From Escherichia coli (GTDB lineage: Bacteria; Pseudomonadota; Gammaproteobacteria; Enterobacterales; Enterobacteriaceae): a stretch of DNA of 369 bases. The DNA lies in NCBI RefSeq assembly GCF_003334385.1, contig NZ_QOWN01000188.1. The stretch is one strand, 5' to 3'. The notes beneath the pieces were generated by a model. That model made no database searches. It had not been told where the DNA came from and saw nothing but the letters and a program-made list of their open reading frames with translations. Positions 1 to 369 of the stretch are shown piece by piece (position 1 is the first letter of the stretch; every line of letters begins with the position of its first letter). Position numbers and translations under genes: made by a program.

Positions 1-216
1 CAACGATTTGGCCGCCGCCTCAGCCTGTATGTGAACACGGCAGCGGAAGCCATCCGGGCGCTGTCGTTACAGGTGCCGGGCTTTCGCCGTCAGATGAACG
101 AAGGCTGGTACCAGATACGTATTGCCGGTGATGACACGGCACCGGAGGCGGTGTATGCCCGCCTTCACGAACCACTGGGTGAGGGAACGGTCATCCATAT
201 TGTGCCGCGACTGGCC
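1..216 (+). other. N-terminal ubiquitin-like (beta-grasp) portion of the gpI-like protein, N-terminally truncated by the window edge
   Basis: This stretch aligns with the N-terminal region of lambda gpI, which has been described as a ubiquitin-like fold. It shows an alternating hydrophobic and charged pattern typical of a small globular domain (LSLYVNTAAEAIRAL ... GWYQIRIAG ... GTVIHIVPR). The domain boundaries are approximate. Confidence 0.55.
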
Positions 217-369
217 GGTGCCGGAAAGGGCGGACTGCAGATTGTGCTGGGGGCGGCGGCCATCGTGGGCTCTTTCTTCACTGCCGGAGCCACGATGGCG
301 TTATGGGGTTCAGCCCTGGCAGCCGGTGGTTTTTCTGCCACCACGATGCTGTTTTCACTTGGAGCCAGC
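1..369 (+). CDS. I: Tail tip assembly protein I (lambda gpI family), internal fragment; both the start and the stop lie outside the window
   Basis: Frame 1 is open across all 123 codons, while frames 2 and 3 contain TGA stops (for example at 32-34, 95-97, 129-131, 180-182). Third codon positions are GC-rich, consistent with this frame. The translation shares blocks with lambda gpI as I recall it: QRFGRR, AEAIRAL, GWYQ(I/V)RIAG, VIHIVPR, QIVLGAAAI, GSFFTAGAT, LFSLGAS. By that recalled alignment the true start codon should sit roughly 60-70 nt upstream of position 1 and the stop a few hundred nt downstream. Confidence 0.9.
235..369 (+). other. Uncharged Gly/Ala-rich hydrophobic segment (predicted membrane-interacting or glycine-zipper-like region), continuing past the window end
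   Basis: Codons 79-123 (LQIVLGAAAIVGSFFTAGATMALWGSALAAGGFSATTMLFSLGAS) contain no charged residue (D, E, K, R, H) in 45 positions and are rich in Gly, Ala, Ser and Thr spaced among Ile, Leu, Val, Phe and Trp. This is long enough for one or two hydrophobic helices. The same character is present in the corresponding region of lambda gpI as recalled. Confidence 0.6.

Follow-up and report, generated by a model that had tools for sequence, protein, structure and literature searches.

The window analysed here, by which we mean the whole 369-nucleotide (nt) stretch of Escherichia coli contig NZ_QOWN01000188.1 (62% G+C), is almost certainly an internal fragment of a gpI-type tail-tip gene of a lambda-like E. 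coli prophage, whose product would act as a plug of the tail tip. The homology to lambda gpI, which the first-pass annotation had proposed from the letters alone, is borne out, far beyond chance, by several searches. BLASTP aligned the window translation with lambda gpI residues 24-145 (76/124 identities, 61%, E 5e-46), Lambda_tail_I (PF06805) of Pfam matched window residues 1-74 (model positions 15-83 of 83, E 2.4e-12), the model spanning the N-terminal domain only, and PHROGs 4244 (“tail protein”, E 3.7e-61) and 32 (“tail assembly protein”, E 1.8e-35) were matched as well. The NCBIfam scan of the 123-amino-acid (aa) translation matched no family, which is uninformative because both Pfam and the PHROGs do match. 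The complete open reading frame (ORF) of 226 aa, taken from a locus identical to the window at 100% (L001, E. coli G1/2), aligns with lambda gpI end to end (151/225 identities, 67%, E 4e-105), and its residues 1-224 match chain I of PDB entry 8IYK in phmmer (E 5.9e-96), the C-terminal part of this match lying outside the window. The family is large, comprising 999 clusters at 90% identity and 3273 representatives at 50% identity (E <= 1e-3).

Frame 1 is free of stops across all 123 codons, while six-frame translation reveals two to four stops in each of the five other frames. In a global codon alignment, the window shares 66% of amino acids and 68% of nucleotides with lambda I, and the differences at codon positions 1, 2 and 3 number 31, 21 and 64 (nonsynonymous and synonymous divergence, dN and dS, 0.271 and 1.049; dN/dS 0.26). 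Against four phage copies of the enterohaemorrhagic E. coli (EHEC) type (93.8-96.2% nt identity), the respective differences are 0-3, 0-1 and 13-19 and dN/dS is only about 0.03-0.08, which shows recent purifying selection among the close relatives. Judged by this substitution pattern, it is frame 1 that is shown to be under coding selection, and it is next to impossible that the signal of the window comes from a gene on the other strand or in another frame, or from a structured RNA. The mechanical ORF list does contain minus-strand ORFs of 43-59 aa, and the first 34 nt are truly dual-coding with the upstream gene K; these minus-strand ORFs were nevertheless rejected, since the third-position bias fits frame 1 only and all other frames carry stops. 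Scans of the window found no promoter-like sites, terminator-like sites or repeats, and the Rfam scan returned mir-2011 alone (E 0.35, far under its gathering score), which was taken as chance.

The genomic context is that of a lambdoid prophage. The window is 100% identical to chromosomal prophages of E. coli G1/2, G6/7 and G8 (human faecal isolates from Germany), and a match to it is present in 1877 of the 5426 complete E. coli genomes; the copy number has a median of two and reaches 11. In the G1/2 locus L001, where the prophage adjoins yecD/aspS, one strand carries lysis genes, terminase, capsid, portal, connectors, major tail protein, chaperones and tape measure, followed by the M-like protein, L, K, I, J and side-fibre genes. 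The M-like, L, K, I and J genes are thus collinear downstream of the tape measure and accompanied by head and lysis genes, and I lies between K and J on the same strand with its 5' end overlapping K. The upstream K combines Prok-JAB (E 3.6e-15) and NLPC_P60 (E 1.7e-12) domains and has an intact JAMM motif, HSHPGGLPWLSEAD, while the downstream J shares 66% identity with lambda J over 1069 aa; PHROG assignments within the module are 14 for the M-like protein, 30 for K and 4244/32 for I. These data agree with the suggestion, made before the flanks were seen, of a phage or prophage structural region with K-like and J-like genes on either side. The expected M-L-K-I-J neighbourhood holds for K, which is immediately upstream, and for the downstream position of J, but J is not the immediate neighbour, being separated from I by a 340-nt spacer with the gene for PasB.

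The origin of the window from an F-type (flexible, lambda-tail-like) tailocin cluster should also be considered, since F-pyocins contain gpI homologues. A tailocin would carry tail genes without capsid, portal and terminase, whereas these genes are found upstream in L001, L011 (G6/7) and L012; in L001, the exact match, they include the small and large terminase subunits, portal, major capsid, head-tail connectors, holin and lysis genes. Moreover, strain JE86-ST05 has a complete lambda-type head module, and the closest DNA matches are Stx-converting (Shiga toxin-converting) and other complete phage genomes. The locus is a prophage, and a tailocin source of the window is extremely improbable. 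The 133 phage records that match the window at 80-97% are mostly Stx-converting phages and PPompW prophages, the nearest relatives being lambdoid prophages of the EHEC/Stx type (96-97% nt identity). Together with the protein identity of 61-67% to lambda, this is consistent with the initial impression of a related but distinct lambdoid lineage.

The gene, the lambda structure and this genomic context are already known, one in three complete E. coli genomes has a near-identical copy, and the identification is routine; its practical value is that of a reliable marker of a lambdoid prophage tail module in the surrounding DNA. The features of the window are as follows.

1-369, plus strand: gpI-family tail-tip gene, codons 24-146 of 226, frame 1, both gene ends outside the window
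1-34, plus strand: 3' end of K in frame 2, with the last ten codons (NDLAAASACM) at 2-31 and TGA at 32-34; the RefSeq coding sequence of K ends at L001 20034
31-33 (L001 20031-20033), plus strand: in-frame GTG used by RefSeq as the I start, very probably an internal Val codon
1-207, plus strand: MoaD/ThiS/ubiquitin-like beta-grasp domain, residues 24-92 (beta2 to beta5), with beta1 just upstream of the window
208-234, plus strand: glycine-rich junction RLAGAGKGG, residues 93-101, after the last beta-grasp strand; predicted processing site
235-309, plus strand: hydrophobic helix H1, residues ~102-126, LQIVLGAAAIVGSFFTAGATMALWG, with the Kyte-Doolittle peak at residues 103-121
310-339, plus strand: variable Gly/Ala/Ser loop between H1 and H2, residues 127-136, occupancy 0.58, length differing among homologues
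340-369, plus strand: start of hydrophobic helix H2, residues 137-146 of ~137-156, with the Kyte-Doolittle peak at 136-149; the helix runs past the window

The protein is composed of four parts: a MoaD/ubiquitin-like N-terminal domain (N-domain), a short glycine hinge, the uncharged helices H1 and H2, and a C-terminal plug that has beta-strands. The hinge and H1 are encoded entirely in the window, as are most of the N-domain (minus its first strand) and the beginning of H2; the plug is outside. Conservation was assessed in an alignment of 67 homologues (30-74% identity). The fold of the N-domain was modelled with 64 diverse sequences and judged confident; this model replaced a full-length AlphaFold2 model based on a 19-sequence alignment, which was discarded as too poor by its mean pLDDT (predicted local distance difference test) of 48. 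The N-terminus has the ubiquitin-type beta-grasp fold of the ThiS/MoaD kind and ends in HIVP, with P92 present in 100% of the homologues. At the end of the fold, the window encodes the conserved glycine and the glycine-rich linker IVPRLAGAGKGG, the two sides of the domain junction reading ...IHIVPRLAG and AGKGG-LQIVLG... In the hinge, G96 is conserved at 97%, A97 at 78% and G101 at 93% (codons of Gly96 and Gly101 at nt 217-219 and 232-234), and residues 94-101 have low pLDDT in the N-domain model. H1 has a mean hydropathy of 1.54 across the homologues, 1.9% of charged residues and the invariant G107; in H2 the charged residues amount to 0.4%, and G144 (in the window) and G151 (just past it) are invariant. 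Residues 101-161 are devoid of D, E, R and H and hold the two uncharged hydrophobic helices, which the low-confidence full-length model predicted at 107-116 and 138-155.

The function of such a protein can be suggested from studies of lambda, in which gpI is present in the virion, as revealed by cryo-electron microscopy (cryo-EM) and mass spectrometry (PMC10721106), and forms a trimer in the tip lumen made of residues from ~101 or 134 to 223 (PMC10721106, PMC11101478, PMC12617516). The C-terminal coiled coil of the tape measure rests on this trimer, which plugs the tube and whose strands are augmented onto J (PMC10721106; PMC12617516). Upon binding to LamB, the plug separates, and H1 and H2, no longer visible in the density, have been suggested to insert into the outer membrane (PMC11101478); H1 is resolved from residue 101 in the closed tail and lost in the open state, while the N-terminal domain was never resolved (PMC11101478). 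The first gpI segment resolved in virions, lambda 137-GILFSLGASMVLGGVA-152 (PMC10721106), is matched by the H2 of the window.

From the homology to lambda, one can suggest that three gpI copies are placed inside the tail-tip cone and threaded into J, where the trimer would hold the C-terminal end of the tape measure and block the tube. Binding of J to the receptor would open the cone and loosen the plug, after which H1 and H2 would be released toward the outer membrane, probably entering it, and the tape measure and DNA would be free to leave. The ubiquitin-like domain most likely acts in assembly. A cut at the conserved glycine hinge would remove it before tip and tube are joined, and the probable cutter is the JAB peptidase domain of the overlapping K, although this last point is a prediction only. 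The plug role, the membrane insertion and the removal of the N-domain are all suggested here by the lambda and pyocin work.

The classical view of gpI as a purely transient assembly chaperone, absent from the finished tail, is very unlikely. It survives in the database names, which say “tail assembly protein”, but for lambda it is already refuted by the structures, since gpI residues ~101/134-223 are seen as the tip-lumen trimer by mass spectrometry and in several independent cryo-EM structures (PMC10721106, PMC11101478, PMC12617516); the pyocin homologue PA0640 is likewise found in the tip, and only the N-terminal domain may be transient. The label “tail tip assembly gene” initially given to the window therefore names the family rightly, but is outdated and understates the structural role of the plug, which is formed by the C-terminal two-thirds of gpI in the mature lambda tail tip (PMC10721106, PMC11101478).

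No point contradicts the identification of the gene as gpI, and the caveats that weigh against the proposed reading bear on function. H1, H2 and the plug are assigned to the protein by homology alone, the full-length model having a mean pLDDT of 48, and the insertion of H1/H2 into the membrane is a hypothesis even for lambda. The lambda N-domain may be either cleaved or merely disordered, and recombinant PA0640 loses its N-domain to E. coli proteases, so that K need not be the protease responsible. Finally, many genes of the neighbourhood in G1/2 are flagged as frameshifted, so this copy might not make tails.

The last point leads to the suggestion that the gene is a relic in a decaying, non-functional prophage that no longer builds tails. 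In G1/2 the terminase, capsid, portal, tape measure and L are flagged as frameshifted or partial, and the G6/7 prophage carries similar flags. However, although these sister strains share one prophage, inserted at yecD/aspS in both, their flagged genes differ: flags on L and the major tail protein are confined to G1/2 (L001), and those on J and the YadA-like gene to G6/7 (L011). Such a pattern suggests indel errors in the assemblies and not a decaying prophage. In addition, the I and K ORFs are intact, JE86-ST05 (98.4% nt identity in the window, the same RefSeq I accession) has the tail module and prophage free of frameshift flags, and dN/dS among the close copies is as low as 0.03-0.08. We consider the decay of this prophage unlikely, although less so than the alternatives discussed above, and retain the interpretation of the window as part of a plug-type gpI gene.

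In 2006, Iyer et al. (PMC1779556) proposed that the JAB domain of K cleaves gpI at the conserved Gly. For the pyocin homologue PA0640, removal of the N-domain was demonstrated and called a “proteolytic checkpoint”, and the K homologue PA0639 was found to be needed for tips yet missing from the particles (bioRxiv 10.64898/2026.02.24.707460). It is possible, if doubtful, that in lambdoid phages the JAB domain of K cuts after Gly96, in a deubiquitinase-like maturation that would serve as an assembly checkpoint and release a free, glycine-ended ubiquitin-like protein, which, if so, might have a further role in the infected cell. This idea concerns a property of the whole gpI family, predicted in 2006, and is not special to the window; the question touched upon, namely which protease is behind the loss of the ubiquitin-like domain and what this loss is for, concerns the family as well, and lambda is the better system in which to study it.

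The boundaries of the gene deserve attention because its annotated start lies inside the window. The complete I ORF occupies L001 19932-20612 (226 aa, ATG start), the window corresponding to L001 20001-20369, and I overlaps K by 103 nt (L001 19932-20034), exactly as in lambda, where K (14276-14875) and I (14773-15444) also overlap by 103 nt. The placement of the window inside the gpI gene in the first-pass annotation is thus correct for frame 1 throughout, but its first 34 nt double, in frame 2, as the end of K. RefSeq presents I as WP_016238129.1, a protein of 193 aa which starts at the GTG and reduces the overlap with the K stop to 4 nt, while in phage records the choice of start is mixed, some using the GTG and others the long form.

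Several observations place the beginning of the protein upstream of the GTG. The ATG is located 99 nt 5' of it, and the first 33 residues of the resulting 226-aa ORF align with lambda gpI; the N-termini of 34 of the 66 homologues (30-74% identity) align at query residue 14; the strands beta1 (14-19) and beta2 (29-33) of the confident N-domain fold model are both upstream of the GTG; and a GAGAGG motif precedes the ATG, the GTG being devoid of such a motif. Since the homologue N-termini and the fold model place the protein beginning upstream of the GTG, I very probably starts as the long 226-aa form, or at least upstream of residue 14, and the GTG is very probably internal. The true beginning is shown to be at least 20 residues further upstream than the RefSeq start, and the 193-aa annotation, which illustrates an error that recurs among the records, drops beta1 and beta2 of the ubiquitin-like domain. 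Conservation is poor over the first 13 residues of I (occupancy 0.23 among distant homologues). Within the K/I overlap, the differences from lambda at I codon positions 1, 2 and 3 are 11, 4 and 4, and I position 1 is K position 3; since the changes fall mostly on the third position of K, its frame dominates the constraint, and for this reason the substitution pattern cannot back the long I start.

The I-J spacer (340 nt, L001 20613-20952) is conserved in its first ~160 nt at 71-89% in about 147 phage records. A new antisense small RNA (sRNA) or a moron was considered first for this region and was replaced by the identification of PasB, a known Hfq-dependent prophage sRNA encoded inside the spacer on the strand opposite to I. 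This assignment follows from the published PasB Northern probe AATCCCGCAGTGATCGCGGAGCT, which is an exact match to L001 20625-20647, and from the coordinates in E2348/69, where PasB (1466261-1466343, minus strand) is located between the I stop (1466255) and the J start (1466496). The E2348/69 PasB aligns to L001 20698-20620 (minus strand; 251-329 nt past the window end), being convergent with I, and its terminator ends 8 nt from the I stop. PasA, PasC and PasD were ruled out by their published contexts, and a 112-aa spacer ORF was dismissed as having no PHROG match. PasB is absent from Rfam, a scan of the spacer against which gave nothing at E <= 0.7 (including AgvB, AsxR, Esr41 and STnc100), and it is unannotated in every record seen. 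Promoter-like hexamers (TTCACA-16-TATAAT, 20747-20720) are present 21 nt upstream of the published PasB 5' end, which makes its true transcription start uncertain.

At the other end of the spacer, a G+C-rich hairpin with a T-run is present just upstream of J in every phage examined, lambda included (lambda locus L002, ~2560-2590), with a compensatory change between lineages (GGCACCC/GGGTGCC versus GGCATCC/GGATGCC). The G1/2 spacer has in its place another hairpin, of 14 bp and perfectly symmetrical (L001 20819-20850).

Among the closest known systems is lambda gpI (NP_040599; PDB 8IYK, 8IYL, 8K35, 8XCG, 9E7M), also named the “insertion” or “plug” protein. The two are collinear over the full length (67% identity overall, 61% in the window), have the ubiquitin-like domain, glycine hinge, H1, H2 and the plug with its beta-strands in the same order, and are encoded between K and J with the 103-nt K overlap. 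They differ in about one third of the residues, mostly on the N-domain surface and in the H1-H2 loop, where lambda has a 2-residue deletion, and in a two-residue C-terminal extension (QG) of the G1/2-type protein; in addition, J follows I after 340 nt here and after 60 nt in lambda. The copies from lambdoid prophages of EHEC and enteropathogenic E. coli (EPEC) and from Stx phages (PPompW, BP-4795, YYZ-2008, Stx1/Stx2) are closer in sequence (93.8-96.7% nt and 96.7-99.2% amino-acid identity in the window) and likewise have the K overlap and the long I-J spacer with PasB, while scattered, mainly synonymous changes and the distal half of the spacer distinguish the G1/2-type lineage from them.

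PA0640, the tip plug of the Pseudomonas aeruginosa F-type pyocin (“THIP” of the F7 pyocin), resembles gpI according to the literature in its C-terminal plug trimer holding the tape-measure C-terminus, in the two hydrophobic helices and in an N-terminal domain missing from mature particles. It is a distant sequence relative and belongs to a tailocin rather than a phage, and the N-domain removal demonstrated for PA0640 is not so for lambda-type phages. Two PDB chains under the name “putative tail assembly protein” (9L9P and 25VF) are matched as well (E 1e-20 and 6e-13, respectively). From MoaD, ThiS, SAMP1 and Urm1, the N-domain differs by a sequence identity of only 9-22% and by its fusion to a membrane-active plug; a carrier or conjugation role is not indicated because no E1-like or sulfur-transfer partner is encoded nearby. 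The plug domain of the T5 baseplate hub pb3 is likewise a trimer at the corresponding site of the tip lumen; it is opened by receptor binding, and its contact with the outer membrane has been suggested (PMC10721106). It is a functional analogue only, representing an insertion in one large hub protein rather than a separate gene and lacking the ubiquitin-like domain.

The lambda reference used for K is itself peculiar. In NC_001416, K has 199 aa and lacks ~48 residues at the N-terminal end of the JAB domain, the AESCG glutamate among them, and the missing residues are encoded right after L in another frame (lambda ~14136-14275; L002 1237-1376). An additional base at this point and a K of 247 aa (L010 1519-2262) are found in the re-sequenced lambda (PV340536.1) and in most lambda-like records, and the reference K looks as if a 1-nt difference in J02459 had truncated it. 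Several database entries of the “tail assembly protein” are also probably artefacts, with internal duplications of 30-60 residues, frameshifted stretches, or K-I or L-I fusions (in our collection P0044, P0074, P0083, P0106, P0012, P0129, P0178, P0005, P0007, P0019, P0084, P0094, P0095 and P0111). Some of the fusions could be genuine, as fusions of the I-K and I-J types are mentioned by Iyer et al.

The prophages that carry the gene are mosaic, a near-identical L-K-I module with the same RefSeq I accession being joined to different head modules (L001 5266-9386 versus L012 1157-8349): in G1/2 the capsid is encoded by one large gene (~1.9 kb), and in JE86-ST05 the module is of the lambda type, with portal, S49 protease, decoration and capsid genes. 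Past the side-fibre genes, the G1/2 prophage has cargo (L001 27223-33902, near the prophage end at yecD) comprising an adhesin-like protein with a YadA C-terminal domain, a DinI-like gene and an S6-family peptidase autotransporter of the SPATE type (serine protease autotransporters of Enterobacteriaceae), which is annotated in pieces.
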